In this document: positions 13,789 through 59,274 of the stretch, piece by piece | Position numbering within the stretch: position 1 is the stretch's first letter | Layout: each line of letters opens with the position of its first letter | Origin: Candidatus Tayloriibacteriota bacterium | Lineage (GTDB): Bacteria; Patescibacteriota; Minisyncoccia; Phycocordibacterales; CAIZLB01 | Reading direction: 5' to 3' | NCBI GenBank assembly: GCA_018883165.1 | Contig: VEQN01000001.1 | Location: forward strand, 21,949-85,948 | Length of the DNA stretch: 64,000 nucleotides | Program-made: the position numbers and the translations under genes | Notes under the pieces: generated by a model | What the model was told of the DNA's origin: nothing | The model's input: only the letters and a program-made list of their open reading frames with translations | Databases searched by the model: none

Positions 13789-14823
13789 TTATACACAAAT
13801 TTCACCCACAACCACCTCAAGTGGCAATATTGGGATATATGTTTTTCCAATCTGATACTGGATTTCCAATATCTTTTTGATAACCGAAGCGGTATGAGCG
13901 GCAGGAATACCCTCAACAGTCTTTTTTATCGAATCAATCTCCTTTATATCCACCCCGCTCTTTGCTTGAATCTGAACCAAAAGAACACTTCTAAGTCTCT
14001 CTAAACACAGTTGTGAGAATAATTTTACATCAATTGAATCACTAAGTGCCAGGTGAAGGTGTTCAATTGCCTTCTGTGCATCTTTCCGTAGCAATGCTTC
14101 AGTAAATCCATTAACCAATGTAGACTTTGGAGCATTGGTAATTTCTTCCACAAACTCTCTTGAGATACTTGTACCCTTTGATGCTGATATGACTTTCTGT
14201 AGAGTACTCAGCGTATCTCTAAATGACCCATCACCAAGAAGCGCAACAAGTTCAGCACCCGAGGCATCGATTGTATATCCTTCACTTTTTGAAACCTTCT
14301 GTACAACACCAGTTAGGATATCCACTGTTGGTTTTTTAAATGTATACACTTCACATCGAGAAAGAATTGTCTCTGGTATCCTTTCAATTTCAGTTGTCGC
14401 GAGAATAAAGATGACATGCTTTGGCGGCTCTTCAAGAGTCTTCAAAAATGCATTAAATGCTGCCTTTGAGAGCATGTGTACTTCATCCAAGATATATACC
14501 TTGTATTTTGATTCAAGAGGTACCGTATTTACAGCCTCTGTAAGCGCACGAATATCATCAACACTTGTGTTTGATGCCGCATCGATTTCATACAAATCAT
14601 TTTGTGTTGTACCAATGGCACGAGCAAATATTCTTGCAATACTTGTCTTACCAGTTCCACGCGATCCGTGAAATAAATACGCATGACCGATCAATCCATC
14701 TTTTATGGATTGTTCAAGAACTGAAACTACATGATCTTGATCAACAACATCTTTAAAATCTACAGGTCTATATTTTCTATATAGTGAAATATGAGATTCT
14801 TGTGGAGTATTTTTCTTTGACAT
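13789..14823 (-). CDS. dnaX: DNA polymerase III gamma/tau subunit, short form (344 aa).
   Basis: YRPVDFKDVVDQDHV, the P-loop GSRGTGKTSIARIFARAI, ILDEVHMLS, and a SRC arginine-finger region. It lacks the tau C-terminal domains. Confidence 0.8.
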   Translation of the reverse strand: MSKKNTPQESHISLYRKYRPVDFKDVVDQDHVVSVLEQSIKDGLIGHAYLFHGSRGTGKTSIARIFARAIGTTQNDLYEIDAASNTSVDDIRALTEAVNTVPLESKYKVYILDEVHMLSKAAFNAFLKTLEEPPKHVIFILATTEIERIPETILSRCEVYTFKKPTVDILTGVVQKVSKSEGYTIDASGAELVALLGDGSFRDTLSTLQKVISASKGTSISREFVEEITNAPKSTLVNGFTEALLRKDAQKAIEHLHLALSDSIDVKLFSQLCLERLRSVLLVQIQAKSGVDIKEIDSIKKTVEGIPAAHTASVIKKILEIQYQIGKTYIPILPLEVVVGEICV

Positions 14824-14943
14824 ACCTTTGTATTTTACCCCCTATCACCAACAAAAGAAACTCATGGACTTTAATACATATATATTGTATATTCTGACAA
14901 ACCGGACAACAGTCCACAGTTCCACCACAAACCAAAACTTGCC

Positions 14944-15657
14944 ATGATACTCACCAAGAAGTTCGCACTCACATGGAAAAAACTGATCGAGGGCGCAGCG
15001 CAAGGAAAGTGCTGCAGATTCAAACGTGTGCTTTTCGAAGTTCCTGAAGGCTACCTCACTGGATCATCAACAGAAGATCCTCACACCCTGGCCTTTGCTG
15101 GACTCTCACAAAAAGCACTACACGGATACAGAAAAAGACTCGAATATGACGATGTAACGTATATCCATGCCAACTGCCTACATCTCAACGCGATTGCTGG
15201 AGGCTTGGTACTTGGGACCAGAAATACCAAGTGGATGACTCCCGATGACGACGTGTTCGTTCTACCAGGCGGCTTCTGGTACGTGAGAGCAGATGTCTAT
15301 GCGAGCACAGACGAACCTGGGGATGTCTCATTCACTTGGGCACAGACGCTCTGTGAGATTCTTTCTGGCCAATCACAGATTGAAGTCAGTGGTGGAATCC
15401 AGATGGCTTCCCCACCTGGAGACAAACCATTTAGGATCAGGCTTAAAGCGAGTAACCGTGACGACAAGAAGTTGCTTCAAATGAAAGTGCTCTTCGACAT
15501 AATCAAAGGTTCCAAACACCCATACCACGCCAAGGTTATGGCAACCTTGATTCACGTCATGCACATACTCATCATGGCTCATGAGGAGCTCCCCAAAAGA
15601 GCAAACCTTGTGAGCATCGGAATCAACGATGGCTACATTACGGGCAACATAAATTGA
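14944..15657 (+). CDS. Hypothetical protein (237 aa).
   Basis: Long ORF divergent from dnaX. No motif recognised. About 47% GC, similar to the core genes. Confidence 0.45.
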   Translation: MILTKKFALTWKKLIEGAAQGKCCRFKRVLFEVPEGYLTGSSTEDPHTLAFAGLSQKALHGYRKRLEYDDVTYIHANCLHLNAIAGGLVLGTRNTKWMTPDDDVFVLPGGFWYVRADVYASTDEPGDVSFTWAQTLCEILSGQSQIEVSGGIQMASPPGDKPFRIRLKASNRDDKKLLQMKVLFDIIKGSKHPYHAKVMATLIHVMHILIMAHEELPKRANLVSIGINDGYITGNIN

Positions 15658-15701
15658 CCCGAGGACAAAGGTGCACCTATTCGTAGGTGCACCTTCTTCT
15701 T

Positions 15702-16766
15702 TTACCGCATAGATTTCAGAAATCTTTTCACGATTTCTTCCACTTCCTCAAGAGTATTTGCTTTCTCCATCAATTCTAATCTCAACTCTTTAGCACCATC
15801 AAAATGGTTCACGTATGCTTTGTAATGTTTTTTCATAATCGCAAAGCTTTTAATATCCCCCAATTCCTTTACATACTCTCTCGTATGCTCCATCATCACG
15901 CTAAGTCTCTCTTCAACCGATGGCATATATATCTCTCCAGTATCGAAATTTCTGAAAAGCCACGGATTACCAAATATTGCTCTGCCAAGCATGACCCCGT
16001 CTGCACCAGTAGTCATTCCTTTTTCATATGCATCATTAATTGAGAGTGCATCACCATTCCCAAGAATGAGTGTCTTGTCCCCTGCTTTGTCTTTAAAATA
16101 TGCATCTCGAATCTCAACAGCACGTTTAACATGTTCCCATCGAGCCGGAACCTTAGACATTTCTTTTCGAGTTCTTGCATGGATGGTAACCACAGCAGGC
16201 TCTGCACTCAAAAGTTTTGGTAACCATGTTTCAAGCTCATTCTTGTTGTATCCGATTCTTGTCTTCACAGTAACCGGAAGATTAGGTGCACCTTCTTTAG
16301 CAGCTTTAATTACGGCAACAGCAACATCTGGGTTCTTAATCATCGCAGATCCGCAACCCTGCTTTTCTATACCCTTGTCGGGACACCCCATATTAATATC
16401 AATGCCATCAAATCCGAGTTCCTGAACAAGAGCCGCGGCTTGCTTCATATATTCTGGATGTGAGCTAAAAAGCTGTGCTACAATAGGTCGTTCAATATCT
16501 GGATTGAATTTCAAATCCCTAAGCAGTTTCATCTTCCCTTCTGGGGTGGCACGGATGAGCCCGTCAGCAGACACAAACTCTGTCCACGTAACATCAGGCT
16601 TACCATATGTATTGATCATCTTCCTAAAGGCAACATCAGTAACATCCGCCATTGGAGCGAGCACATATATCGGTCTCTTCTCAGAGTTTGTCTTCTTTTT
16701 TACATCTTTCCAGAATCCAAGATTTACCATATCTAGGATACTACTGGAGAACGGGTTTTTCTTCAA
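15702..16766 (-). CDS. dus: tRNA-dihydrouridine synthase.
   Basis: LAPMADVTDVAFR, GFDGIDINMGCPDKGIEKQGCGSAMIKNPD, and VTVKTRIGYN. Confidence 0.8.
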   Translation of the reverse strand: MKKNPFSSSILDMVNLGFWKDVKKKTNSEKRPIYVLAPMADVTDVAFRKMINTYGKPDVTWTEFVSADGLIRATPEGKMKLLRDLKFNPDIERPIVAQLFSSHPEYMKQAAALVQELGFDGIDINMGCPDKGIEKQGCGSAMIKNPDVAVAVIKAAKEGAPNLPVTVKTRIGYNKNELETWLPKLLSAEPAVVTIHARTRKEMSKVPARWEHVKRAVEIRDAYFKDKAGDKTLILGNGDALSINDAYEKGMTTGADGVMLGRAIFGNPWLFRNFDTGEIYMPSVEERLSVMMEHTREYVKELGDIKSFAIMKKHYKAYVNHFDGAKELRLELMEKANTLEEVEEIVKRFLKSMR

Positions 16767-16823
16767 GTAAACCCCTTAGTTTCAAGGAAGTTTATGATAC
16801 AATACCACCCGTAAATTAATTAA

Positions 16824-18218
<1,395 letters not shown>

Positions 18219-18227
18219 GACAAGGAG

Positions 18228-18258
18228 AAAAAACACCCTCGAGAGAGGGTGTTTTTGT
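18228..18258. terminator. Bidirectional rho-independent terminator between eno and the pilus operon.
   Basis: aaaaa-acaccctc-gaga-gagggtgt-ttttgtattt. Confidence 0.6.
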
Positions 18259-18262
18259 ATTT

Positions 18263-18706
18263 CTACTTTCTTCGTATCTTTTTCTCAGATGCTTCGTTTT
18301 GTGACGTAAGCCTTTCAATCTCAGCATTGTGAAATCTCTGAAGCATCAGTATGTGGTCTAACTTTTTCTGTAGTTCCCTGTTCTTTACTAGAGCATTCTC
18401 AATTTCACGTGGATCTTTCTTTTCAATTGCAAACGTGTTATCCATCTTCTGTTGAATTTCTTTTTCTTGTTCAGTGAGATGAAGTATGGCAACTCTCCTT
18501 CTTTGTATTTCATCTTGGTTTACTTGGATCTTATGTTCAAAGTATGCAAGTTCTCTTTGATGCTGTGATGTTTCTTGTTCTTCTTTCTTTTGCTTCTCAT
18601 AGTCTAAACGACTCTTTGACGCTTCTGCAGCAACACTTTCAAGGACATCTCGTTTTTTACCCAAGAGACCTCCCTGACTTCTGAAAAAAGAGAATTTAAA
18701 TACCAT
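18263..18706 (-). CDS. Coiled-coil protein (147 aa), last gene of the pilus-like operon.
   Basis: Q/E/K-rich heptad-like sequence. It lies 1 nt after the upstream gene on the same strand. Confidence 0.5.
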   Translation of the reverse strand: MVFKFSFFRSQGGLLGKKRDVLESVAAEASKSRLDYEKQKKEEQETSQHQRELAYFEHKIQVNQDEIQRRRVAILHLTEQEKEIQQKMDNTFAIEKKDPREIENALVKNRELQKKLDHILMLQRFHNAEIERLTSQNEASEKKIRRK

Positions 18707-18707
18707 A

Positions 18708-19445
18708 TTATTTTGTATGCGGTAACACCATCTTTATTTCCATCTCAATCTTTTGAATTTCCTGCTGAAGGCGAATCCCCTCTTGTACTTCATGTTGTTG
18801 TTTTTGTTGAAGAAAACCAAGCGCCCTTCTCTTATTGTCTACATCTTTCTCTTTATACAACCTCTCACTCTTAGCATGCTCCGCATCGAGCTCATGCTTG
18901 TTCTTTTGTGTCTCAATTTGTCTCATGGAAACACCAAGTTTTTGAATCTGTACACCTGTCTCAAATATTTCATTTTTCTCAGCAACTAATTGATGCTGGA
19001 GTTGCTGTAGCTGAGTCTCCAAATGCTTCATTGTATTTGTTTTATTGTCAGATTCTTTTCTTTTTTCTAGAATCTCTTTCTCCAACTTCTGCAGTTCTTG
19101 CCCCGCATCACTCACTTTTGCCTTGAGAGAATGTTCCTTCTCTAGAAGCCCCTGAAGGATATGTTCAATATCTTTTAGTAACCGACCATCATGTTCTATT
19201 TCCGTAGCAAGTCTTCTCGCTTCAGTTTGATGATGTGACAATTCAAGCTTCGCATGATCACGCTTGCGCTCCAAATCTGCAAGTACCTGCTTTGCACGCT
19301 CACGCTCTTGCCTCTGACGTTCTCTCTTGGCCGCTTCAATTCGTAGTCGCTCAGATGCTGCTGCATCATAGTTTAAAGATTGACCATGTGAGCCGTAGCT
19401 ACCATATGACCCATGATATCCATAGTTTGAACTGCCGTATGACAT
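18708..19445 (-). CDS. Coiled-coil protein (245 aa) with an N-terminal Ser/Tyr/Gly low-complexity region.
   Basis: MSYGSSNYGYHGSYGSYGSHG, then about 200 aa of E/K/Q/L-rich predicted coiled coil. It is packed tightly behind the pilin-like genes. Confidence 0.55.
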   Translation of the reverse strand: MSYGSSNYGYHGSYGSYGSHGQSLNYDAAASERLRIEAAKRERQRQERERAKQVLADLERKRDHAKLELSHHQTEARRLATEIEHDGRLLKDIEHILQGLLEKEHSLKAKVSDAGQELQKLEKEILEKRKESDNKTNTMKHLETQLQQLQHQLVAEKNEIFETGVQIQKLGVSMRQIETQKNKHELDAEHAKSERLYKEKDVDNKRRALGFLQQKQQHEVQEGIRLQQEIQKIEMEIKMVLPHTK

Positions 19446-19454
19446 ATGCTCATA

Positions 19455-19850
19455 TTATATCAAATATATACGGTGTTGTTCATTAAATATCTTTTTTGCA
19501 ATACGTACTTGATATGTAACATCAATGATTCTGAATTCTTTATTAACATTGAAGTGAATATACAACACCTCTCCGAGAATATTCTTCACTCTCTCTAGGG
19601 AATGTACATCAATGATTGTTTTACCATTGTATGCAAGTACCGTACCACCAGAAACACCTAAGATATTCTTAAAGTCCAACGATTTCACCTGAAGCGAAAT
19701 ATATCTTTCCATCACCTTCCTTCTGTATGTCGATTCAATTCCCTGAAATACATATTGTGTACCCATATACATATCAAGAACCACTACCCCAAGAACAGAA
19801 AGTAATGAAATATATATTGAGATTTCAATTAATGTAAATCCTTTACTCAT
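19455..19850 (-). CDS. Type IV pilin / pseudopilin-like protein (class III signal peptide).
   Basis: N-terminus MSKG|FTLIEISIYISLLSVLGVVVL: Gly at -1, Phe at +1, Glu at +5, then a hydrophobic helix. This is a canonical prepilin peptidase substrate motif. Confidence 0.65.
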   Translation of the reverse strand: MSKGFTLIEISIYISLLSVLGVVVLDMYMGTQYVFQGIESTYRRKVMERYISLQVKSLDFKNILGVSGGTVLAYNGKTIIDVHSLERVKNILGEVLYIHFNVNKEFRIIDVTYQVRIAKKIFNEQHRIYLI

Positions 19851-21000
19851 GTGAAAGAATAGTTAAAGGGGTAGTTGTAGAATTTATGCCAAGAAAGAGC
19901 TCATCACCTACACACAGAGCAGATGTAACTCTTCCGGAAAGATCCATACCGGTTACTTTCTTTAGATCAGTATCAAATATTTGTAGCTCCTGGTTGGAAT
20001 TCGATGTACCAACAATGTGTTTTTCTTCTCCTGATATGATGATATCAATACTTGAACCAACTTTGGCAGACATTTTTGATATCAATGAATTATCTTCTTC
20101 AGACAAATATGCCAGTTCATCATTTCCTCTACTCCTACCGAAGATGACCCCTTCCTTGTATATATCCAAAGATCTACCATTACCTGAAAAACCAGGCGCA
20201 TCATATGTATATATTTTATTCAACATACCATCCTCAAACTTATACACTTCAATCTCTGGATCAGATGGCCCAAGTACATATACCAAGTCATCAATGGAAT
20301 ACATATCATATATGCCATATCCAGTTTCGATACGTTGTAGGATTCGACAAGAAGTATCTATGACAAATATTTCAGGCCCGTCATTCTTTTCAAACCCAAC
20401 GATTAACATATTTAGAGCTGCTGTAATGACTCTGGGTACTCTTTGATCGTTCCGAACGGTCTTAAGCACACATGAGTTCTGCAAACTCAGACTACTATTT
20501 TGATACGTCACATGTTGCACATCGGAAGACACACCTGTATTCGTGAGATATATCGATGACCCTACGAATGTCATGTCGCTTGTACCCGGACCAGTATGTA
20601 GACTCGCTTGTATGGTTTTAGATATCGGATCAAATACAGCAATGTCATGGTCACTGGTACTTGCCGAGTTTAATGACATGTATATATCCCCACCCAGCAT
20701 CTTCATACTTGAAATGACAGTGGTAGTTCCAAACTGTAGCCCTACTTCAATCTTCTTGAGTACACCAGGATTCTTAAGAAAAGATGTACATATTTTTATA
20801 CCCCCCAGATCTGCTGATCTTCTCAATACACCTGTTACACTTTTTCCTTGAATCTCATGCATTTTAGTAAATATATTTGAGTGCATAGTATTTGATTTTA
20901 AATATACAGATATTTGAAATATCGGAATGCAAATGAGGACCAAGAGACCCATTGCAAGTAATATCTCTAAAATCATGAATCCTTTGTTATGGTGATACAT
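19843..21000 (-). CDS. Large prepilin-like protein (about 385 aa mature) with an extensive, possibly beta-rich, C-terminal domain. Candidate minor pilin or tip adhesin.
   Basis: MYHHNKG|FMILEILLAMGLLVLI prepilin motif, with Glu at +5. The ORF track starts 15 codons earlier, at 21045. The Met giving a 7-aa leader is at 21000. Confidence 0.55.
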   Translation of the reverse strand: MYHHNKGFMILEILLAMGLLVLICIPIFQISVYLKSNTMHSNIFTKMHEIQGKSVTGVLRRSADLGGIKICTSFLKNPGVLKKIEVGLQFGTTTVISSMKMLGGDIYMSLNSASTSDHDIAVFDPISKTIQASLHTGPGTSDMTFVGSSIYLTNTGVSSDVQHVTYQNSSLSLQNSCVLKTVRNDQRVPRVITAALNMLIVGFEKNDGPEIFVIDTSCRILQRIETGYGIYDMYSIDDLVYVLGPSDPEIEVYKFEDGMLNKIYTYDAPGFSGNGRSLDIYKEGVIFGRSRGNDELAYLSEEDNSLISKMSAKVGSSIDIIISGEEKHIVGTSNSNQELQIFDTDLKKVTGMDLSGRVTSALCVGDELFLGINSTTTPLTILSHE

Positions 21001-22021
21001 GTTCAACAATTGAATACATCGGTTGAATAACAGAAAGGGAAACAAAAAGAACTACGCCTGCGATACAAAACATCAACACAGGCTCAACCCATTTCGATAT
21101 CCTTCGGTGAAGCTTTGATATATCTTCGGTATATATCTTTGACAAATATGAAAGTGAGGCATCGAGTCTCCCTGTTGCCTCACCGACCATGGAAAGCTCA
21201 ACCCATGGTGTGTGTTTAAAATATCTAGTTGCTTGAAGTGCGGTGCTTAGTGTCACACCCTGAGATATCATCTCGCACATAATATGCATGTCCTTTTGTA
21301 TTGGAATATACTTTAGATCCTGAAGCACGTTATTCATTGCATCAGCAAGTGATGATTCAGATTTCAACAAGACCTCAAGTGAACGTGATATATGCAATGA
21401 GTAATTGCTAAATATGAATGTGGCTAAAACTGGTACCTTCAAGAACATACTTTGAATATATTCTCTTACAGCAACATATTCACCATACACATATTTCACA
21501 ACATATATTACAAGTACACTCATCAAAAGTATTACCAGGATATTACCTTCTACAAAACCAGTACATAACAGAATGAGTTTGGTAGCGTACGGTACATCAA
21601 CTTTCATTGAAGAAAATATGGGTAATATTTTCGGGAATATGAACGAGACAATTGCATACGACATACAAATTGAAAACAGGAATATGAGTGTCGGATATGT
21701 AATACTCTCAACAAGTTTTCTCCTTACTTCAGCTTTCTTTTCAATATACTCTGCAATTCTCAAGAACCCATTATTAAAATCTCCACTTTTCTCTGCGGAT
21801 TTAATCATCGATATCACAGTTGAATCCCCTCCAACCACATGTACAATATGTACAAAAGACTCAGAAACTGGTTTTCCCTCGAGAATCTTTTCTTTTACAA
21901 TCCCGATACCATTACATATCTTCCGATCTTTAATTTTTCTCTCAATCAGCGTAAGAGCTTCCGGGATGGTCATTGGAACTTGTATGAAATATGACAAATA
22001 CACAAAGAGATCAGCCTTCAT
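20987..22021 (-). CDS. Type II secretion / type IV pilus platform protein (GspF/PilC/ComGB family).
   Basis: Two-repeat polytopic architecture. The cytoplasmic domain and hydrophobic block ITYPTLIFLFSICMSYAIVSFIFPKI are both repeated. It is about 344 aa, similar to ComGB. Confidence 0.75.
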   Translation of the reverse strand: MKADLFVYLSYFIQVPMTIPEALTLIERKIKDRKICNGIGIVKEKILEGKPVSESFVHIVHVVGGDSTVISMIKSAEKSGDFNNGFLRIAEYIEKKAEVRRKLVESITYPTLIFLFSICMSYAIVSFIFPKILPIFSSMKVDVPYATKLILLCTGFVEGNILVILLMSVLVIYVVKYVYGEYVAVREYIQSMFLKVPVLATFIFSNYSLHISRSLEVLLKSESSLADAMNNVLQDLKYIPIQKDMHIMCEMISQGVTLSTALQATRYFKHTPWVELSMVGEATGRLDASLSYLSKIYTEDISKLHRRISKWVEPVLMFCIAGVVLFVSLSVIQPMYSIVEHVSP

Positions 22022-22956
22022 GAGTAATTGCGAATTACGTCTGACAATTCACCAGAAAGCACTTCGTATATCCCTTTCCTGGAAATTAACCTACCCTCAT
22101 CGTCATGAATAGGTACAAGCTGCTGACCGATGACCAGCTGAAGTAGCGGTAACACTCCTTTTGAAACACCAAGATCAATCAATCTCCCCACCACCCCGTA
22201 CGCTTTATCTGCATGAATTGACGCAATTACAAGATGACCAGTAAGTGCTGCTCTGAACGCGAGTTGTGCCGTATCAGTGTCTCTGATTTCACCAATGACT
22301 ATAACCTCAGGATCTTGTCTCAAGACCGCTTTCAAACCTTCAATGAATGGAAACGTTTTTTCTTGAATCTGTATTTGTCTAACACCAGGAACAACATACT
22401 CAACAGGATCTTCAATCGTCACTATATTTTTTCCTTGCTGTGCAAGTTCTTGCACACAGGCATATATTGTCGTTGTCTTACCACTTCCGGTAGCACCAGA
22501 AACCAGTATCATACCTTTACCCCTATCTAGCACATCTTCAAGAAGTGATTGCTGTACCGCAGTGAATCCAAGCGCTTCAAACGAAACGTCCCTTCTGAGC
22601 TTTGGACGGAGTAGTCGTATGACTGCATTTTCACCATAGAATGTTGGAACAATCGAGACTCGCATATCAACACGTTCATTTCTGAATGAGTAGGTACACC
22701 TTCCATCTTGTGCTCTATCGTGTACGTCAGTTCGTATCTTACTCAATACCTTTATCCTTCCGATGATTTCATCCTTGAGTTTCTTATCAATCTCTTCATA
22801 TTTCTCAAGAACTCCAAGTACCCGAAACCGTATCGATACCAATTCTTCTCCAGGGTCAATATGAATATCACTTGCGCCAGCATTACACGCTGCTTCAAAG
22901 ACCGTATGAACAAACGTGCTCATAAGTCCAACATCAGTAAGTACTCTATGCTTCAT
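22018..22956 (-). CDS. Type II/IV secretion ATPase (GspE/PilB/ComGA-like), minimal 312-aa form.
   Basis: ASDIHI, RVSIVPTFYGENAVIRLL (GspE signature), Walker A VSGATGSGKTTT, TIEDPVE (Asp box), Walker B VIVIGEIRD, and the His box ASIHA. It has no N1 domain or tetracysteine motif. It overlaps pilC by ATGA. Confidence 0.8.
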   Translation of the reverse strand: MKHRVLTDVGLMSTFVHTVFEAACNAGASDIHIDPGEELVSIRFRVLGVLEKYEEIDKKLKDEIIGRIKVLSKIRTDVHDRAQDGRCTYSFRNERVDMRVSIVPTFYGENAVIRLLRPKLRRDVSFEALGFTAVQQSLLEDVLDRGKGMILVSGATGSGKTTTIYACVQELAQQGKNIVTIEDPVEYVVPGVRQIQIQEKTFPFIEGLKAVLRQDPEVIVIGEIRDTDTAQLAFRAALTGHLVIASIHADKAYGVVGRLIDLGVSKGVLPLLQLVIGQQLVPIHDDEGRLISRKGIYEVLSGELSDVIRNYS

Positions 22957-23006
22957 GCAGAGAATATACTGAATTCGGATGAAAAACAGATTAAGAAAAT
23001 ATAACT

Positions 23007-23804
23007 TTACAGATCTATACAGTCCGATATATCAAATTGACCAATTCTCGTACGTTTAATATGAAAAGCGATACCTTCTGAACCACACTTTTTCGATATA
23101 TCATTTGCAAGTGTTCTCATGTATGTACCAGATGATGCCGATACTCGAATCCTGAATGCTTTCAACACCTCACTATGTGTACACTTTTTCCATGAATCCA
23201 AGATGGGGCCTTGCCTAAATTCTCCAGAGACCAAAGCATGCGTATTCTCAATTATTGAAAGCACATCCACCATCGAAACAGATCTAGATTCAACATATTC
23301 GATAGAGTGTATATATGAAGTAAAAGTTGGTAATTCCACTTCAGATATCTTACCCTCTTTTGCTAATACATGGAGAGGAACCCCATTTACTGTCTTTGAA
23401 GAGTATGCAGGATACGTACTTGTATATGTACCCACAAATGAATTACATATAGTCTTAAATAGATCATCAGAAATATCCACCGGATTAAAGTATGTTACCA
23501 AACCTAATGTATCCCCTGTATCTGTGGCAACACCAGTGAGCACCTCAACCTCATATACCTTATCCAAAGAAAGAAATTCTTCTCTTCTCTTGTTATAAGC
23601 GCCTGAAAGTACCAAAAGCACACCTTCAGCTAAAGGATCGAGTCTCCCTGCATATGATAAAGGAATATCATTAAGTATCGGATACAACTCACGAAGTCGC
23701 CCCAATGACTCGAGCGGCGTCTCCCCTCGTCTTTTATATACACAAATCAGGCCGTCTACAACACCACGGGCTAAATCGATTGAGGAGATGGTCACAGGTT
23801 TCAT
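23007..23804 (-). CDS. truB: tRNA pseudouridine(55) synthase.
   Basis: Catalytic motif YAGRLDPLAEGVLLV. Confidence 0.8.
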   Translation of the reverse strand: MKPVTISSIDLARGVVDGLICVYKRRGETPLESLGRLRELYPILNDIPLSYAGRLDPLAEGVLLVLSGAYNKRREEFLSLDKVYEVEVLTGVATDTGDTLGLVTYFNPVDISDDLFKTICNSFVGTYTSTYPAYSSKTVNGVPLHVLAKEGKISEVELPTFTSYIHSIEYVESRSVSMVDVLSIIENTHALVSGEFRQGPILDSWKKCTHSEVLKAFRIRVSASSGTYMRTLANDISKKCGSEGIAFHIKRTRIGQFDISDCIDL

Positions 23805-23827
23805 AATACTGTAGAATAATACCTATC

Positions 23828-25069
23828 ATGGCTAAAAACACCAGTCTATCAACCGAAAGCTACAAAGGGGTTAGAGATTTCTACCCTGAGGATATGGCAA
23901 TCCAAAATTATATATTTAACACCTGGAAAAAGACTGTTGAGAAGTTTGGGTACGTGGAATACACAGCATCAATACTCGAACCCGCAGAATTGTATCGAGC
24001 AAAATCAGGCGAAGAAATTGTAAATGAACAAACATATACCTTTGTCGACCGTGGAGATCGAGAAGTTACACTTCGTCCTGAAATGACACCGACCGTTGCA
24101 CGACTCGTAGCTGGTAAAAAAAGAGATTTAGGTTTCCCTCTTCGATGGTACTCAATCCCAAACGTATTTAGATATGAAAGACCACAGCGAGGAAGACTTC
24201 GAGAACACTGGCAACTAAATGTTGATGCATTTGGAGTACCTGGAACAGAAATTGATGTTGAAGCAATTACTCTTGCATATGAAATCATGAAAGCATTCGG
24301 TGCCAATGATTCAGATTTCGGCATTAAGATTAGTAGTCGAAAACTTCTCAATGCAATATTTAGTACTTGGTACGAGCTTGATGAACAGAAATCAAAAGCG
24401 CTACAGAAGCTCATAGACAAGAAGAAGAAAATGCCTGAAGAAGTGTTTGCGGTTGAAGCAGAGAAAATAGTTGGTAAACCATTTTCATTCCTCAATACCC
24501 AAAGTAGTGAATACCAAGAAGCGATGGCAATCCCTGTAATCAGAGAAGCAAAAGAAGAACTGGACTCAATCATTGAAACTCTCAATAAAAGAGGTATTAA
24601 GAATGTTGAGTATGATGAAACACTCATCCGTGGTTTCGATTACTACACAGGTACTGTATTTGAAGTATTTGATACAAACCCTGAAAACAACAGATCTCTG
24701 TTTGGTGGCGGCAGATATGACGAACTTCTTGCACTCTTTGGCGGTGAATCACTCCCCGCTTTTGGCTTCGGTATGGGAGACGTTACGATTCGAGATTTCC
24801 TTGAAACACGAAATCTTCTTCCAAAATACACATCCTCTGCCTCATATATGATTTGCATCATGGACAAATCTGCAACAGACTACGCTGATCAGGTGGCAAA
24901 AGAGCTTAGAAATGAAGGTAAAAATGTCTGCGTAAACTATTCATACAAGTCTATCGGAGACCAGATAAAATCTGCTCTAAAACAATCTATACAATACTGT
25001 ATAGTCATCGGTGAGGATGAGGTAAAAAACAAGACATACACAATCAAAGATTTAACAAAAGAAGCTTAG
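23828..25069 (+). CDS. hisS: Histidyl-tRNA synthetase.
   Basis: GVRDFYPEDM, RWYSIPNVFRYERPQRGRLREHWQLNVDAFG, and GGGRYDEL. Confidence 0.85.
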   Translation: MAKNTSLSTESYKGVRDFYPEDMAIQNYIFNTWKKTVEKFGYVEYTASILEPAELYRAKSGEEIVNEQTYTFVDRGDREVTLRPEMTPTVARLVAGKKRDLGFPLRWYSIPNVFRYERPQRGRLREHWQLNVDAFGVPGTEIDVEAITLAYEIMKAFGANDSDFGIKISSRKLLNAIFSTWYELDEQKSKALQKLIDKKKKMPEEVFAVEAEKIVGKPFSFLNTQSSEYQEAMAIPVIREAKEELDSIIETLNKRGIKNVEYDETLIRGFDYYTGTVFEVFDTNPENNRSLFGGGRYDELLALFGGESLPAFGFGMGDVTIRDFLETRNLLPKYTSSASYMICIMDKSATDYADQVAKELRNEGKNVCVNYSYKSIGDQIKSALKQSIQYCIVIGEDEVKNKTYTIKDLTKEA

Positions 25070-25090
25070 TCATATATATTTGATATTCAT

Positions 25091-25666
25091 ATGCGAAAAA
25101 TTGTTTTAGATATTGAAACTAGAAATACGTTCCAAGAAGTTGGTAAGGCTGACCCTGTCCTTCTTGATATTTCAGTAGTCTGTATATATGACTCAGAAAC
25201 AGATTCATATTCAAGTTACCTACAGGAAAACCTACCCAAACTTTGGCCAATTCTTGAGAAAGCGGACCAGATCATAACATTCAATGGTGATCATTTTGAT
25301 ATTCCGATTCTAAATAAATATTACCCAGGTGATCTTCTCCAAATTAAACAGCTCGACTTACTAAAAGAAGTAAAAAAGAGTTTGGGACACAGAGTGGGCC
25401 TTGGCTCAATTGCAGAAGCAACGCTTGGAGTCGGCAAAAGTGGTCACGGACTCGATGCCATAGAGTGGTGGAAAAAGGGTGAGATTGATAAAATCATCAA
25501 ATACTGTATCGATGATGTAAAAGTAACAAAAGGCGTCTACGAGTATGCTCTTGAGCACAAGAAACTTAAATTTAAGGATGGTACAAATATTGCTGAATTT
25601 GCAATAGATACGACAGGTTGGCAAGATGTTGAAGAGAGTAAAATGACATTTAGCCTCCCGTTCTAG
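25091..25666 (+). CDS. RNase-H-fold 3'-5' exonuclease-like protein (DEDD/PolB-exo-related).
   Basis: Exo I-like VLDIETRN, FNGDHFDIPIL, and a later YCIDDV acidic motif. The assignment rests on motif resemblance only. Confidence 0.4.
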   Translation: MRKIVLDIETRNTFQEVGKADPVLLDISVVCIYDSETDSYSSYLQENLPKLWPILEKADQIITFNGDHFDIPILNKYYPGDLLQIKQLDLLKEVKKSLGHRVGLGSIAEATLGVGKSGHGLDAIEWWKKGEIDKIIKYCIDDVKVTKGVYEYALEHKKLKFKDGTNIAEFAIDTTGWQDVEESKMTFSLPF

Positions 25667-25768
25667 ACAAAACAAATATTTGTTCCCTTATATTCTTCCC
25701 CAGACAAGAACATTTACCCCTATGGTATACTTATCTCATATTTATCAATAATTTGAGTAATACGTAAT

Positions 25769-26530
25769 ATGAATGGAGAGACAAACAAACTCATAGTGCC
25801 AATATCGATAATCGTTGCAGGTGCACTTATCGCTCTTGGTATCTATTTCTCAGGACAAGGTAACACTGATGGAGGTAAAGTAAAGAAAGGTGGCGCACAA
25901 GGAATCATTGAAGATACACTTGGCGAACCAGATCAACCTGAAATTGTAGTAAAACCGGTAACAGCTGCGGACCATATTCGAGGAAGCATTGATGCAAAGG
26001 TTAAAATCGTGGAATATTCAGATACAGAATGTCCATTCTGTAAGCGATATCACGGTACACTTAAGCAAATCTTTGATGAGTACGGTAGCAGTGACAAGGT
26101 AGCTTGGGTATACAGACATTTCCCACTTGATATGCACAAGAAAGCACCTAAAGAAGCTGAAGCTACCGAATGCGCAAACGAAGTTGGTGGCAAAGAAGCA
26201 TTCTGGAAATATATCGACCTTCTGTACGCAACAACAAATGGTAACGACTCACTTGACCTTGCTGAACTTCCAAAGATGGCTGAGAAAGTCGGTCTTGATG
26301 TGAATGCATTCAATACCTGCCTAAACAGTGGAAAGTATGCCGCAAAGATTAACGAAGCAAAGACAGACGGATTTAACGCCGGAGCACGAGGAACACCATA
26401 TACTGTTCTCATAGTTCAAAACGGACGAAAGACAGAGACAGTTCCTTTGGTTGATAGTGAAGGTAATGGACTTGGAGCTCTTCAGTACCCTGCTCTCAAG
26501 AAGATCATCGACAAACTACTCGCACAGTAA
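25769..26530 (+). CDS. Membrane-anchored DsbA-like thiol:disulfide oxidoreductase (thioredoxin fold).
   Basis: N-terminal TM segment LIVPISIIVAGALIALGIYF. CxxC active site ECPFCKRY. The remainder is DsbA-like. Confidence 0.65.
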   Translation: MNGETNKLIVPISIIVAGALIALGIYFSGQGNTDGGKVKKGGAQGIIEDTLGEPDQPEIVVKPVTAADHIRGSIDAKVKIVEYSDTECPFCKRYHGTLKQIFDEYGSSDKVAWVYRHFPLDMHKKAPKEAEATECANEVGGKEAFWKYIDLLYATTNGNDSLDLAELPKMAEKVGLDVNAFNTCLNSGKYAAKINEAKTDGFNAGARGTPYTVLIVQNGRKTETVPLVDSEGNGLGALQYPALKKIIDKLLAQ

Positions 26531-26544
26531 ACAAATCGATGTAA

Positions 26545-26577
26545 TAAAAAACACCAGGCACTCCTGGTGTTTTTTAT
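26545..26577. terminator. Bidirectional terminator.
   Basis: aaaaa-acaccagg-cactc-cctggtgt-tttttatt. Confidence 0.6.
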
Positions 26578-26580
26578 TAC

Positions 26581-29500
26581 TTATATCTTACCTGCCAACA
26601 AATCATCTTCGAATGCTTTGATACCCTCTAAATCCTTGCTGTACCCATCTGTATTTGGAAAATCAAGATTTCGTATCTTGTTATATACAATCAATAGCAG
26701 TTTTTCTACTCGCTCCTTACTCTCCACATCTTCCTCAAGTGACAACTCAGCAATTTGCCCATTCTTCATAGGTTCGACGAATTGTAATATACCTTTCTCA
26801 AACCTATACTTGTCTTTCCATTCACGCGCTTTCTCAATGAGAATGTGATAGAACATCAACTGTCTTCGGTATTCATACAGTTTAATTTCCTCATAAGAAG
26901 AAATGGCTTTCCATTCATTTTTTGGTTTACCGGTTTTGTAGTCAATTACAACAATTCTACCCCCGGGAAGCTCTACACACTTGTCGATCTTTCCTGTAAG
27001 GTGCGCCTCGAGTCCGCCCTCAGAAAGTACAATTCCCTGATCTTTGAAGTTTACTTCCGTCTTATCAGTAGATTTAAACTCGGATATCTTTTGGTCATAG
27101 AATGAGGAGATAGCCTCAACGCCACGCTCACTAAACAAGTCAAAATCAGCTGGTGCCAATCTTTCTCTTCGAAGATATTCCAAGAACCACTCTGTGCAAG
27201 TTTCCTTACTCACCACTTCGCCATCAAATCTAAGCTTTACCGATATTCTCTCTAGCGTATTATGTATCGCCGTACCGTATGCACTCGAAGGTGTCTTTGC
27301 CTGTGGGAACCTGAGTAAATTCTGTTCTAGAAAGATTTGAGGGCCACCCTTGGTTACATTCAAAAAGTTGTTCAAATGCGTTACAGAGAGCTTGTAGTCC
27401 TCTAGGAGTGATTTTAGAAGCTCTTCTTCTTCACCCATGAATGGTGGAGTGTGGTACAAAAGCCATGATGATGTGAGGAGTTCATGGGTTTCAGGCGTAT
27501 ATATGGTTCCGAATTCTTTTTCCATTGGAGCTTCAGTCTCTTCTTGCTCGGTTAAGAATCTTAGCTTTTGAGATTCTCGACCATCATCTTTGACTTTGTA
27601 TGATGTGATATACAGGTTACTTTTTGCTCGAGTCAGTGCTACGTAGAACAAACGAAGCTGATCATCTTCCGTATCACCAGCCGGCTCAATCGGAAGGTTA
27701 CTTGGTAATGATATTCTCTTTGGGGCGCCTCGCCCTGCCCACACCTCATCTTGGCACGAGAGTACGAATACCGTATTGAACTCTAAACCTTTTGCTTTGT
27801 GTGCAGAAAGTAGACTTACTGCTTTTGCAGAGTTTGCAAATGGACTCAGGTCATTGAGTGGAATGTTGTTTGTGGTATGCATATCCACAAACTCAATCAT
27901 GTCTTTCACATGAAGCTGCTCCATTGCCCCATCTCTTCCCTTGTATTCTCGGAGAGCTCTCACAAAGACTCGAAGACTCGACAAGAAAGAGAGGTATTCA
28001 GCTCTGGCATGTTCGAATCTTTCTTTACTAAAATAGTATGACTTGAATGTACTCACATACACATTAGGTGAGAGAGGTTGTTGTACTAATTCTTCCTCAT
28101 CCTCTTCGGACTCACGAATGAGTTCAACATGCGCACCGATAAGTGTGTCTAATATTTTCTCGAGCGGCAGTACCTCTGCTTCTGCTCCTGTGGTTATGAA
28201 AAAGTCAGCAATACGTTTAAGCTCGGCATCTTCGAGCATGCACTCAAGCCACGATTTACCTTCCTTGAAAGACTTCTTTGAGAGATTCCAAATCTTGATT
28301 CTCGGGATCTCGAAAAATGGGAATGCTAATATCTTTGGCAGATATTCATCTGCCTCTACCATGTTCTTTGATGATATTGAATGTATGAATCTCCCAAGAA
28401 GTATGAGCTGTTCGATATGTGGTTCAAGGAATACATTCTGTTCACGCTCATATCTAATCGGCACACGTGCACCTTGAAGAAAAGGAACTAATGCTTCAAG
28501 ATATGCATGCTTCCTTGCAATGACTGCAATTTCTTCTGGTGGTACCCCTGAATCAATGAGAGACTTAATCCTTCTGGATACATAGTGTGCCTCATGGAGA
28601 CTAGTATCAAATACCTTGTGAATTATTTCACCTTTCTTTAGTGATGTATTTGAAGAAACCAAAGATTTTTCAAACGCAGGTAAGATATTCTCAAGTCTAC
28701 TTTCACCCTTTCTAATGATTGCGGTTGCAATATCAAGTATATCTTGTGTAGAACGATAGTTTTCAACCATATTTACCACTTCAACGTCTTTGTACATATC
28801 TTTGAAATTCAATATGTTTGACAGTTCAGCACCTTGAAACTTGTATACAGCTTGATCATCATCACCCACCACCATTATATTCGGCCTCCCCTCATGTACT
28901 GGCGCATCTGCAATGAGTGACAATATCTTCATCTGAGCATTGTTTGTGTCCTGAAACTCATCGACTAATATGTATTGATATTGCTCCTGTAGATCAAACT
29001 TAAGTCTTGGGTGTTTCTGGATCGCTTCAATTACATCAAGGATCATATCATCGAAATCAAAGAGGCATTTTTGGTGCATCACATTCCTGTACTCCTCATA
29101 TATATGCTGTACAGACATCATCTTTTCAAGAGACAATAGGTCTTTGATGGTTTTCTCTCCTTCATCTGTGTTTTTGAACCACTTAGTTTTCCATTTAGAA
29201 ATCGGCTCATTTTTTTCGATCTTCTCTGCAGTATCCAGTGCTTCTGCAAGCGTCTTAACCACAACAGTTTCGAGACTTGGAAATTCTCCGATATATTTAT
29301 TATCATCTAATGCATCAAGAGCTTTTTGAAATTCACCAATCGTTTCTTTCCCCACACGCTTCTCCACTATCGGCACTAGCACATCATTGATGTGAACTAT
29401 TGACTCCCCGTTTCGTTCAAGTATCTCCTTAAGTTTAGATGGTGTGATTCCTGCTTTCTTCAGATATCCAATAACCTTGAGTACATCTTGCAGAAAAATA

Positions 29501-29931
29501 TACCCCTCTTCTGGGTGACTAGCTTTTAAAGGATCTTTGTATGGCAACGTATCGAATATTGATTCTAATATTCCAATTTGTGAAATCTGATCTGCAGGAC
29601 TAAATATTGCACCTTTGTAGAAAAACTCTGGGTACTTCTGGATGATATCAACTGAGAAACTATGGAATGTATGTATTGATACTCGATATGCTTCTGTCCC
29701 GATGAGCTTTGAAAGTCGCTCTCTCATATTTACTGCAGCGGAGTCTGTGAACGTGAGACACAGAATATTTGAAGGAGAAGCTTGAGTCTCCTTCAAAATT
29801 TTTGCCACACGAAGTGAAAGAATTTCTGTTTTTCCAGACCCAGGACCTGCAACAACAAGAAGTGGACCTTCGATGGTGTCTACCGCTTTCTTTTGTGCTT
29901 TGTTTAATTTTTTATATCGTTCTTCAAACAT
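26581..29931 (-). CDS. UvrD/PcrA-family helicase fused to a C-terminal PD-(D/E)xK (RecB/Cas4-like) nuclease domain. AddA-like helicase-nuclease.
   Basis: N-terminal Walker A VVAGPGSGKTEILSLRVAKIL, VDEFQDTN, and a UvrD C-terminus. The final roughly 150 aa include GKIDKCVELPGGRIVVIDYKTGK, a nuclease core. Confidence 0.8.
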   Translation of the reverse strand: MFEERYKKLNKAQKKAVDTIEGPLLVVAGPGSGKTEILSLRVAKILKETQASPSNILCLTFTDSAAVNMRERLSKLIGTEAYRVSIHTFHSFSVDIIQKYPEFFYKGAIFSPADQISQIGILESIFDTLPYKDPLKASHPEEGYIFLQDVLKVIGYLKKAGITPSKLKEILERNGESIVHINDVLVPIVEKRVGKETIGEFQKALDALDDNKYIGEFPSLETVVVKTLAEALDTAEKIEKNEPISKWKTKWFKNTDEGEKTIKDLLSLEKMMSVQHIYEEYRNVMHQKCLFDFDDMILDVIEAIQKHPRLKFDLQEQYQYILVDEFQDTNNAQMKILSLIADAPVHEGRPNIMVVGDDDQAVYKFQGAELSNILNFKDMYKDVEVVNMVENYRSTQDILDIATAIIRKGESRLENILPAFEKSLVSSNTSLKKGEIIHKVFDTSLHEAHYVSRRIKSLIDSGVPPEEIAVIARKHAYLEALVPFLQGARVPIRYEREQNVFLEPHIEQLILLGRFIHSISSKNMVEADEYLPKILAFPFFEIPRIKIWNLSKKSFKEGKSWLECMLEDAELKRIADFFITTGAEAEVLPLEKILDTLIGAHVELIRESEEDEEELVQQPLSPNVYVSTFKSYYFSKERFEHARAEYLSFLSSLRVFVRALREYKGRDGAMEQLHVKDMIEFVDMHTTNNIPLNDLSPFANSAKAVSLLSAHKAKGLEFNTVFVLSCQDEVWAGRGAPKRISLPSNLPIEPAGDTEDDQLRLFYVALTRAKSNLYITSYKVKDDGRESQKLRFLTEQEETEAPMEKEFGTIYTPETHELLTSSWLLYHTPPFMGEEEELLKSLLEDYKLSVTHLNNFLNVTKGGPQIFLEQNLLRFPQAKTPSSAYGTAIHNTLERISVKLRFDGEVVSKETCTEWFLEYLRRERLAPADFDLFSERGVEAISSFYDQKISEFKSTDKTEVNFKDQGIVLSEGGLEAHLTGKIDKCVELPGGRIVVIDYKTGKPKNEWKAISSYEEIKLYEYRRQLMFYHILIEKAREWKDKYRFEKGILQFVEPMKNGQIAELSLEEDVESKERVEKLLLIVYNKIRNLDFPNTDGYSKDLEGIKAFEDDLLAGKI

Positions 29932-42768: not shown

Positions 42769-43347
42769 TTAACACTTCTTTTCAATTCTTCTAACTTTCC
42801 AACCCGTATCCGCACCGTTGAGTCTATATATTGTCTTACTTGTACTATTAATATGGCTTACTAAACTGTTATGCAATATGTATACAATTGATTCAGGCGC
42901 AACCTGAGTGACATATACAACAGGAGCAGTACCTTTGTGTGGATTAGGTTGATCTGAAACAAACCTATACATACAAGATTGGTCGAATGGAGAATTATCA
43001 TTGAGTGGAACATTGACCCAGGCTGATGTGGCTGGTGCTGGAGATATGATTGTATTTCCACTAGTTGTTACACTAATCCAACTCGCTTTACCTTCAGCAT
43101 CTGACACGAGAAACTTTCCTGCTCCTTGTGTACCATCAATGAGTTGGAACCTTCCGAAGACAGCAAGACCACCTAATCCCAACTTACCACTCTTGTTCTG
43201 GTCACTCCCAGATACATTAAGTGGTGCAGGAGCATTATCCCTTGGAGGTCGAGGGGGTGCTGGATTCCATGCAAATGCCACGGATACAAAACCGAACAGT
43301 ACGATGACGGGTAATATATTTTTTGTAACAAAGATAATTTTTTTCAT
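42769..43347 (-). CDS. Secreted hypothetical protein (signal peptide, Pro-rich linker).
   Basis: Signal peptide MKKIIFVTKNILPVIVLFGFVSVAFA, then WNPAPPRPPRDNAPAPL. No known domain recognised. Confidence 0.5.
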   Translation of the reverse strand: MKKIIFVTKNILPVIVLFGFVSVAFAWNPAPPRPPRDNAPAPLNVSGSDQNKSGKLGLGGLAVFGRFQLIDGTQGAGKFLVSDAEGKASWISVTTSGNTIISPAPATSAWVNVPLNDNSPFDQSCMYRFVSDQPNPHKGTAPVVYVTQVAPESIVYILHNSLVSHINSTSKTIYRLNGADTGWKVRRIEKKC

Positions 43348-49581: not shown

Positions 49582-50979
49582 ATGACACACCCATCCCTAC
49601 CACCCAAACCACATCCACAACTCTTCCGTTCAGGATTCCTCTCCGCTTGGTTCCAGACACCACCCGGAACAAGCAGCGAGATGTTTACCCATAAGCCGTC
49701 GCGGGCATCTCTTACTGCTGCGCGCTGGCACATCGAATATGCAAAAAAGCACGGTATCCAGACCATTGAATTGGCTGGGGCTCATACCAAACGCACCGCA
49801 AATGTCAATCCGGAAAAACTCGCAGACCCGGTTGCAGCACACTGCGACATGGAGACCACCAGCGACGGAGAAGGCACAGACATGAGCGACGACTTCATCA
49901 AGCGGCTGAAAGATGCCGCTGATGGCAAAGTCACTATCGGCACACTCGGAACATTCGAAAATGCTCTGCATCTCGACCTCGGTGCCCGACGCCAAAACAT
50001 CATGCACTTCCGGCGCGCAATTCGAGCTGTGGCGCGGATGAAAGCACTCGGTCTCGGAACTGAAGGGGTCACGATCTTTGTTGGCCGAGACGTCACAAAA
50101 TCAGTGGCAGAGAACCTGCGGCTGTTCGCCAAGGTCCTCATTCCTATCGCACTGTATGCAAAAAGCCTGGGCGTCAAGATCTTCATCGAGAACTGCCCGA
50201 TGTGCGGATGGAGTGAGACCCACGAGGTCTTCATCCAAAACATCGCGAATAACGTGGAGCACTGGATCGTCATGGCGCGCACCATCGAAGAAGCTGGCCT
50301 GAAAGGCTGGGTCTTCATCAACTATGATGCAAGTCACGACATCCTCCAGTTTACTCGCCCAGAGTGGGTGTTCCAAATCCTTAAGCGTGCGGGCTACGCT
50401 TGGATCATTGGCCGATTCCACGGCAAAGACTTGTCGCGAATGTCTGGTTACACAGCAGCGGCGACTTCTCTTGGCTCACGAATCCGTGGACCCTGGGAAA
50501 AGATGTCTGGTGATCAACCCCTACCGGGCGCGACACACCACAACCCCCTCGCCATTGCAAATGGTCAACAAGTGGACTGGTTTGGATTCTGTGTCCATGC
50601 AATCACAAGCCTTGGCTGTGCATCAGACCCAAACAACCTGATGACATTCACCACCGAATGTGAGCACGGCGCACTCCGATACTGGAAAAACTTCCTCGTG
50701 CCCGGAACCACAGACAAGTGGGACCAAGAACGACACGCGGAAGTCGCAGGTGCGGTTCTTGCCTCATCTATCCAATACATCCAGCATCAAGGATGTGCTG
50801 CGCTCCAACACACCTACATGCGAGATGTTCTTGCCCAAGTCCCCGGGTCAATCTGGTCATATCAACCACTCGACCCAAACAACTTGGAACTCCTACCTGG
50901 GGTTGATGACTGCATCAGTCGTGCGAAAGAATTCGAAATTGGTCCAATCAACATGACCGAAGAGGTCGTCATTGAATAA
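49582..50979 (+). CDS. Divergent xylose-isomerase-family TIM-barrel protein with a Pro-rich N-terminal extension. Compositional outlier.
   Basis: GTEGVTIFVGRDV resembles the XylA FWGGREG block. IGRFHGKD resembles the XylA FHD.D metal motif. KIFIENCP resembles the XylA EPKP block. 60-nt hand counts give about 50-55% G+C, with frequent CTG/CGC/GCG codons, versus about 37-48% in the flanks. Confidence 0.45.
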   Translation: MTHPSLPPKPHPQLFRSGFLSAWFQTPPGTSSEMFTHKPSRASLTAARWHIEYAKKHGIQTIELAGAHTKRTANVNPEKLADPVAAHCDMETTSDGEGTDMSDDFIKRLKDAADGKVTIGTLGTFENALHLDLGARRQNIMHFRRAIRAVARMKALGLGTEGVTIFVGRDVTKSVAENLRLFAKVLIPIALYAKSLGVKIFIENCPMCGWSETHEVFIQNIANNVEHWIVMARTIEEAGLKGWVFINYDASHDILQFTRPEWVFQILKRAGYAWIIGRFHGKDLSRMSGYTAAATSLGSRIRGPWEKMSGDQPLPGATHHNPLAIANGQQVDWFGFCVHAITSLGCASDPNNLMTFTTECEHGALRYWKNFLVPGTTDKWDQERHAEVAGAVLASSIQYIQHQGCAALQHTYMRDVLAQVPGSIWSYQPLDPNNLELLPGVDDCISRAKEFEIGPINMTEEVVIE

Positions 50980-51002
50980 GGCCAAGCCCTGACTACGGAG
51001 AA

Positions 51003-51040: not shown

Positions 51041-51047
51041 TCTCACT

Positions 51048-59237: not shown

Positions 59238-59274
59238 GACACTATATTTCAAAGTGGTTGCTGGAGATGCCAGC

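Follow-up and report, generated by a model that had tools for sequence, protein, structure and literature searches.

The present analysis concerns a window of 64,000 nucleotides (the whole stretch of DNA that was analysed, positions 21,949 to 85,948 of contig VEQN01000001.1 of a Candidatus Tayloriibacteriota bacterium) and, within it, six minus-strand genes encoding the motor ATPase, the platform protein and two prepilin-like proteins of a type IV filament machinery, followed by two helical proteins of 245 and 147 residues, hereafter referred to as CC245 and CC147. The first five genes are shown to form a cassette that is conserved in the related lineages and that combines a large pilin, predicted to carry a beta-propeller, with an attached family of predicted hairpin proteins typified by CC245; the sixth gene, CC147, is shown to be an addition specific to a subclade. 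The explanation favoured here, with somewhat better than even confidence, is that of a streamlined, clade-specific cassette for type IV filaments in a Parcubacteria/Paceibacteria lineage, in which the propeller would act as an adhesin and the hairpin protein as a cytoplasmic scaffold or regulator. Bacteria belonging to the Candidate Phyla Radiation (CPR) are thought to rely on pili for finding and holding their hosts.

The motor and the prepilin-like proteins

The six genes follow one another, from the ATPase to CC147, at spacings of -4, -14, -8, +9 and +1 nt. The initial annotation, made from the letters and the open reading frames (ORFs) of the window, had described six tightly packed minus-strand genes, and all six ORFs were recovered with overlaps or with gaps of at most 9 nt. 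A single terminator-like hairpin, potentially active on either strand (18229-18256; 12-bp stem, 5 of its pairs being GC, set between an A-run and a T-run), lies after the sixth gene, in the interval that separates CC147 from the convergent enolase gene, and there is none ahead of CC245.

The ATPase gene (22018-22956, minus strand, 312 aa) encodes a GspE/PilB/ComGA-like protein that matches the Pfam family T2SSE (PF00437) with 273.7 bits (E-value 2.4e-81; cut-off 24.9). The Walker A motif (GATGSGKT, residues 154-161), the Asp box (180-186), the Walker B motif (215-226) and the His box (239-249) can all be read from its sequence. Its only cysteines are residues 24, 87 and 167, with none after residue 167, so that the zinc tetracysteine is absent, and the protein is taken to lack the N1 domain because the GspE model is matched only from model position 112. 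It consists of the N2 and C-terminal domains alone, with no C-terminal tail. The minimal ATPase recorded in the initial annotation, having the four nucleotide-binding and catalytic boxes and neither N1 domain nor tetracysteine, is thus borne out by the sequence and by the Hidden Markov Models (HMMs). Alignment with the relatives places the entire CxxC...CxxC segment among the parts missing from the window ATPase, and in the subclade of the window a C-terminal tail of about 50 residues has been lost as well.

Among the NCBIfam models the ATPase scores 285 bits with GspE, 267 with PilB, 239 with ComGA and 165 with PilT, all under the respective equivalog cut-offs; the shortfall is from 630.25 for GspE (TIGR02533), from 675.65 for PilB (TIGR02538, 266.9 bits) and from 300 for ComGA (NF041000, 238.8 bits). 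A PilT-type retraction motor, which an architecture devoid of N1 and zinc might suggest, was rejected since the three assembly-type models all outscore PilT. The platform gene (20987-22021, minus strand, 344 aa) matches the Pfam family T2SSF (PF00482) with 109.1 bits over two stretches, corresponding to two T2SSF domains, and contains hydrophobic segments. It scores 166 bits with GspF and 128.5 bits with ComGB, both under the cut-offs (240 for ComGB, NF041012), and the ComGB model is matched from end to end. Both motor genes therefore match the Pfam families expected of them.

A scan of the window for gene starts bearing a G/FxxxE motif and, behind it, a hydrophobic helix returned two ORFs, with KG/FMILE in the large and KG/FTLIE in the small prepilin-like protein, and three other raw matches to the motif that all lie inside unrelated ORFs. 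The small pilin gene (19455-19850, minus strand, 131 aa; leader MSKG/FTLIE) passes the prepilin model TIGR02532 (16.9 against a cut-off of 16.3) and narrowly misses the gathering score of Pfam N_methyl (20.5 against 21.2). The Gly, Ala, Ser and Thr (GAST) content of its product is 19.8%, a value which, by a published GAST criterion, falls under that of cytoplasmic proteins and far under that of major pilins (PMC11623550), so that the protein is not obviously a major pilin. It carries an N-terminal LYI(A/S)LFS motif and occupies the same position as the pilin found 3' of the large pilin in other CPR cassettes; because of this shared position and of the LYI(A/S)LF motif, it is probably a minor pilin or pseudopilin.

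The large prepilin-like gene (19843-21000, minus strand) encodes 385 aa if read from the ATG at 21000, the start adopted by NCBI (FGM57_00215), or 400 aa in the longer ORF from a TTG (19843-21045). Its product begins with the leader MYHHNKG/FMILE, followed by a hydrophobic helix and a C-terminal domain. The motif and the hydrophobic helix are conserved in most orthologs, with the Glu at +5 invariant and with F, L or S after the Gly, and the copies in two lineages (L095 and L097) deviate from the motif. No prepilin HMM threshold is passed by the large pilin, the best score being that to the ComGE N-terminus (19.7 bits against a cut-off of 49). Hence, of the textbook class III signal peptides initially ascribed to the two proteins, the motifs stand in both and the large protein falls short of the prepilin HMMs. 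Taken together, the T2SSE ATPase, the T2SSF platform and the class III signal peptides are features of the type IV filament (TFF) machinery, and the HMMs and motifs support the initial view of a compact filament operon that joins a motor of ComGA/ComGB size to two prepilin-like proteins.

The large non-pilin C-terminal domain noted earlier in the large protein is modelled by AlphaFold2 (AF2) as a seven-bladed beta-propeller following the N-terminal helix. This propeller is homologous to those of the 461-aa and 500-aa pilins of compact Saccharibacteria and Paceibacteria cassettes (hhalign 97.9%, E-value 5e-13, and 89%). Two invariant cysteines, C71 and C363, lie by the first and the last blades, and their placement suggests a ring-closing disulfide; in every related locus a gene for a DsbA/MdbA-like thioredoxin (25769-26530 in the window) is present three genes upstream of the cassette.

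The hairpin family and its association with the cassette

The CC245 gene (18708-19445, minus strand, 245 aa) is identical at the protein level to a hypothetical protein of a Candidatus Taylorbacteria metagenome-assembled genome in NCBI (FGM57_00205). The AF2 model, calculated from a 44-sequence alignment with a predicted local distance difference test (pLDDT) score of 84.3, comprises a disordered Gly/Ser/Tyr tail of the SYGSYG type (residues 1-21), a helix (22-143), a turn and a second helix (150-244), which together form a long antiparallel hairpin, the first helix projecting beyond the end of the second by about 27 residues. The SYGSYG N-terminus had been noticed earlier and is indeed present; the accompanying description of the two proteins as purely coiled-coil holds as regards their helical nature, and for CC245 is better replaced by that of a disordered tail followed by a long helical hairpin. 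Neither CC245 nor CC147 contains a hydrophobic segment (maximum KD19 hydrophobicity of 0.12 and -0.02, respectively), a signal peptide or a prepilin motif, and D, E, K, R and Q make up 45-48% of their residues. Both proteins should be cytoplasmic, since they lack a hydrophobic segment and are highly charged, and the stator or anchor function suggested for them in the initial annotation would likewise have to be exerted in the cytoplasm.

Homologs of CC245 were sought at increasing depth. The single sequence retrieved nine homologs and a profile in a word-indexed search retrieved 45, nearly all of 239-245 aa and with no unrelated coiled-coil proteins among them. An exhaustive HMMER search over 1.84 billion representatives gave 38 clusters at E-values of 1e-10 or lower and 78 at 0.001 or lower, the weaker matches being generic long coiled coils; a metagenome scan with the CC245 alignment yielded two fragments among the matches listed. 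The members range from about 160 to 380 aa, the variation being accommodated in the distal arm. Conservation peaks at residues 16-90 and 196-245, which correspond to the base of the modelled hairpin and its N-terminal overhang, and is lowest in the distal arm; the Gly/Ser/Tyr tail is variable across the family. Pfam offers no family of its own for CC245 and returns generic coiled-coil families alone, and no account of coiled-coil proteins in pilus operons of Patescibacteria came up in a literature search. Judged by its sequence and predicted fold, CC245 is considered the founding member of a small, previously undescribed CPR family of cytoplasmic helical-hairpin proteins.

The genomic context of this family was compared in twelve lineages, namely that of the window and L002, L003, L004, L005, L087/L088, L089, L091, L093, L095, L097 and L099. 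A CC245-family gene is located directly 3' of the small pilin gene in all twelve, and the order ATPase, platform, propeller pilin, small pilin and hairpin protein is found wherever the contig reaches upstream. The same position is occupied by short forms of the family (166-190 aa) which retain only 24-28% identity. Had the coiled-coil genes proved not to be conserved beside pilin genes in the relatives, the initial annotation would have regarded them as unrelated structural proteins of another operon; for CC245 the adjacency is universal in this sample. Identity to the window proteins is 47-76% for the ATPase, 38-69% for CC245, 28-39% for the platform, 27-38% for the large pilin and 21-35% for the small pilin. 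On these identities, the hairpin protein is nearly as constrained as the ATPase and more so than the platform and the pilins.

The presence of the hairpin gene also accompanies a feature of the motor. ATPases from cassettes with a CC245-family gene lack the CxxC...CxxC segment in each of the nine aligned, which come from the window, L002, L004 and L089-L099, and this segment is kept by all three ATPases from compact CPR cassettes without such a gene (a comparison set from Sungbacteria L007, Saccharibacteria L008 and Paceibacteria L010, drawn from the matches listed in a scan of GTDB species genomes with the ATPase alignment). Among the matches listed, that scan otherwise met only generic PilB/GspE loci of at most 46% identity and no close relatives.

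The 3' neighbour of the cassette varies by lineage: it may be CC147, with enolase after it, or else iPGM, DUF1761 or a membrane protein. TruB and the ATPase are parted by an IS1595 transposase in L095, where the five-gene block is undisturbed; the insertion (4661-5562 of that locus) consists of an IS1595-family transposase gene and a 185-aa ORF. The wider surroundings are shared as well, the order in the window (13789-29931), L002 and L089-L099 being UvrD/PD-(D/E)XK helicase, DsbA-like, RNase H-like, HisRS, TruB, cassette, (iPGM), enolase, Dus and DnaX. This order persists in deeply diverged genomes, with platform proteins sharing no more than 28-34% identity.

The CC147 gene (18263-18706, minus strand, 147 aa) encodes a hydrophilic helical protein with orthologs of 40-44% identity in L002, L004 and L088 only, so that it occurs, with the window, in four of the twelve lineages; the two coiled-coil genes, put forward at first as a pair, are not conserved as such. 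Comparison of CC147 with the CC245 family by hhalign gave a collinear N-terminal alignment with 45% probability and an E-value of 2e-4. With the broad family HMM the CC147 proteins score 26.5 bits (L088), 16.0 (L004), 12.4 (window) and 6.4 (the remaining ortholog), against 8.9 bits for the best of 2000 shuffles, and in the L088 and L004 orthologs the model covers the conserved modules at both the N-terminal and the C-terminal end. Against this, 12.2 bits, practically the value of the window CC147, are also reached by a coiled-coil ORF of the window that is unrelated. It is thus plausible, though not established, that CC147 is a shortened tandem paralog of CC245.

Relation to known filament systems

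The nearest counterparts are the compact cassettes of Sungbacteria, Saccharibacteria and Paceibacteria mentioned above, which resemble the window in having a short ATPase (377-414 aa), a platform of about 350 aa and then the pilins, including one of 460-510 aa, with a small pilin bearing the LYI(A)LF motif after the large one. They differ in having four pilin-like genes in place of two, no CC245-family gene and an intact CxxC...CxxC zinc motif, and two of the three (L008 and L010) have in the region examined a canonical GFTLIE major-type pilin. The window type, in which a zinc-less ATPase goes with two pilins and with one or two hairpin genes, appears from these comparisons to be a derived and further reduced variant, because the compact cassettes keep the zinc motif and the extra pilins; the reduction in pilin genes and the loss of the zinc subdomain coincide with the hairpin gene.

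The T4P-2 system of the Saccharibacteria member TM7x offers a likeness in architecture, since it also includes a pilin bearing a beta-propeller, PilX2 (PMC11623550). The C-terminal propeller of PilX2 is heptabladed, the protein has no predicted PilD signal, and it is needed for efficient host binding and has been proposed as a tip adhesin (PMC11623550). PilY1 of the type IVa pili of Pseudomonas and Myxococcus is likewise a beta-propeller adhesin at the pilus tip (PMC11623550). By analogy with PilX2, the modelled propeller fits the suggestion in the initial annotation that the large pilin may be a tip adhesin. The T4P-2 system differs from the window, however, in having PilM2/N2/O2 and pilins in a separate locus, and no coiled-coil hairpin protein has been described for it. 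Type II secretion systems have a GspE with an N1E domain and the zinc tetracysteine, together with GspL/M partners, unlike the window ATPase, which has neither N1 nor tetracysteine, and the PilB equivalog, the PilT and the PilM/N/O complex of type IVa pili were not found among the scanned ORFs of the window. The Pam pili, a novel CPR pilus described in a 2026 preprint, were also considered and set aside as unrelated, being donor-strand-exchange pili.

Proposed function and rival explanations

According to the favoured explanation of a streamlined filament cassette, the motor would assemble a short pilus or pseudopilus, and the propeller, displayed at the cell surface, would serve as an adhesin towards a host or substrate. 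The role of major subunit would fall to the small pilin or else to a pilin from another locus, and the prepilins would be processed by a peptidase encoded elsewhere. The hairpin protein would act on the cytoplasmic face, probably as a dimer with itself or with CC147, in which the conserved hairpin base and the free N-terminal overhang may dock on the ATPase hexamer or the platform and the distal arm of variable length may serve as a spacer. It could in this manner be the scaffold or regulator of a machine for which neither the cassette nor the 10 kb around it encodes PilM/N/O or GspL and whose ATPase has neither N1 nor zinc finger.

Several observations weigh against this explanation. About 46 window ORFs, some 40 of them outside the operon, were scanned with Pfam, and no prepilin peptidase (Peptidase_A24) and no second T2SSE or PilT retraction ATPase were found among them; nor was a major pilin seen in the window. 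The pilus role of the hairpin proteins derives from gene linkage only, and none of the known pilus components resembles them, the Pfam and structure searches giving generic coiled-coil and hairpin matches. The AF2 hairpin of CC245 is a monomer prediction, and the true assembly could be an intermolecular coiled coil. Further, macro-synteny extends over more than 15 kb in all the genomes with the CC245 family and takes in the entire neighbourhood, so that the adjacency of the hairpin gene to the cassette may partly reflect inherited gene order rather than functional coupling. Finally, CC245 is possibly transcribed separately from a promoter-like site just 5' of the gene. This site (19454-19482, minus strand; TGAACA, a 17-nt spacer and TATAAT with an extended TG) overlaps the stop codon of the small pilin gene and ends 9 nt 5' of the CC245 ATG, and would give a near-leaderless transcript.

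These last two points also speak for the strongest rival explanation, according to which the hairpin proteins have no connection with the pilus, fulfil a structural or regulatory function in the cytoplasm, for example in division, the nucleoid or membrane remodelling, and are carried as passengers in a stable gene order. CPR operons often combine different functions, the fold of CC245 finds matches among the EnvC, PspA and SMC-type hairpins, and proteins of the family bear the automatic Joint Genome Institute (JGI) name 'chromosome segregation ATPase'. However, the gaps on either side of CC245 are only 9 nt and 1 nt and no terminator precedes it, the block stays whole despite the insertion sequence next to TruB and the changing downstream neighbours, and the division and nucleoid families give no significant match to the coiled-coil proteins. 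Promoter-like sites in the region are, moreover, fewer than expected from shuffled sequences (16 observed against 21). The passenger explanation is therefore regarded as unlikely, though as one that deserves serious consideration.

A ComG-type competence pseudopilus serving DNA uptake, in place of an adhesive pilus, is considered improbable. The Firmicutes ComG pseudopilus does resemble the window in its ComGA/ComGB-size motor without N1 or N-terminal extensions, and in being a monoderm-type minimal machine without PilMNO. However, the window motor misses the ComGA and ComGB equivalog cut-offs, the cassette has two prepilin genes only as against ComGC and the ComGD-GG set, and no ComE or ComF genes lie nearby; the propeller pilin and the hairpin proteins are in turn foreign to ComG. 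No ComEC, other competence families or PilM/N/O/Q were detected in the Pfam-scanned ORFs of the window, and no PilM/N/O within 10 kb of the cassette in the relatives. The absence of a prepilin peptidase and of PilM/N/O/Q, which the initial annotation had already pointed out, is hereby confirmed for the scanned ORFs, and of the roles it had entertained, DNA uptake and twitching find no support in the window, which has neither ComEA/ComEC nor PilT. Typical CPR genomes also carry a full PilB/PilT/PilC/PilMNO/PilD locus elsewhere (PMC6744442), which tempers the standing of prime candidate for DNA uptake, host attachment or twitching that the initial annotation had given to this locus of a 64-kb window.

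A more specific proposal on the hairpin family concerns the motor itself. FliJ, YscO and subunit D of the V-ATPase are two-helix antiparallel coiled-coil hairpins that are partners of hexameric ATPases and bind inside the hexamer. The CC245 family might, by comparison, constitute a new class of partner of T2SSE ATPases, a dimeric hairpin whose conserved N-terminal overhang would insert into or between the subunits. Working there as a brake in the manner of IF1, or as a stalk or stator in that of FliJ, it would make up for the lost zinc finger and N1 and for the absent PilM/N/O. This is a speculative and quite improbable extension; if it were true, it would represent a way of coupling or gating the type IV pilus motor that is undescribed in any system.

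That CC245 is an IF1-like inhibitor is very doubtful. According to this explanation, the N-terminal region of CC245 wedges into a hexameric ATPase, either the T2SSE ATPase or an F1 sector, and blocks its catalytic cycle, with the coiled coil mediating dimerisation. The best PDB matches of the family profile are indeed mitochondrial IF1 chains (E-values 6.6e-5 to 1.1e-4, 26 bits), collinear over IF1 residues 25-79, and the next coiled coils in the PDB reach at most 19.4 bits, about 7 bits lower. Whether the narrow or the broad family HMM is used, IF1 scores 26 bits, whereas the best of 5000 shuffles attains 15.7 and the reversed IF1 sequence 6.3, and the layout is similar, with a disordered Gly/Ser-rich tail followed by a charged helix. 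However, the match is short (CC245 residues 32-89 approximately), its score is modest and includes 7-8 bits of composition bias, Pfam IATP is not among the 25 families most often matched when 44 members were scanned singly, and the matching His residues are not conserved in the wider family. T2SSE ATPases are, furthermore, structurally unlike F1, and IF1 is to our knowledge a eukaryotic family. The resemblance is accordingly treated as a lead only. That the coiled-coil proteins are extracellular pilus parts (anchor, sheath or tip) or secreted substrates is suggested solely by their position after the pilin genes, and with no targeting signal detected and the charged, non-hydrophobic composition described above, its probability is close to negligible.

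In the remaining scanned ORFs of the window Pfam shows housekeeping genes, and a few further features were recorded. A 520-aa protein with an N-terminal membrane helix, a long coiled coil and a Cys-rich C-terminal region is encoded at 43383-44945 (minus strand), adjoining the gene of a secreted-looking 192-aa protein (42769-43347, minus strand); neither belongs to a Pfam family. Overlapping ORFs on opposite strands occupy 59236-60303, with 256 aa on the plus strand and 342 aa on the minus strand, the latter secreted-looking and of no Pfam family. At 1140-3341 a GT4 glycosyltransferase and a polysaccharide pyruvyl transferase are fused in one 733-aa protein, which adjoins two further glycosyltransferases. 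The GC content rises to 0.47 at 50001-52000 (LepA) and at 60001-62000 (an IMP-cyclohydrolase-like gene and an unknown 440-aa gene), as against 0.36-0.44 elsewhere in the window.

With an ATPase devoid of N1 and zinc finger, a short platform and two pilins, the cassette ranks with the smallest sets of type IV filament genes seen, and it is accompanied by a conserved family, predicted to be cytoplasmic, that has no counterpart in the studied systems. If the hairpin family is an accessory of the motor, it would represent a new way in which a T2SSE ATPase is anchored or regulated, and the cassette would lend itself to reconstitution as a compact system; otherwise, the locus would still be a clean case of a propeller-tipped adhesive pilus outside the Saccharibacteria.

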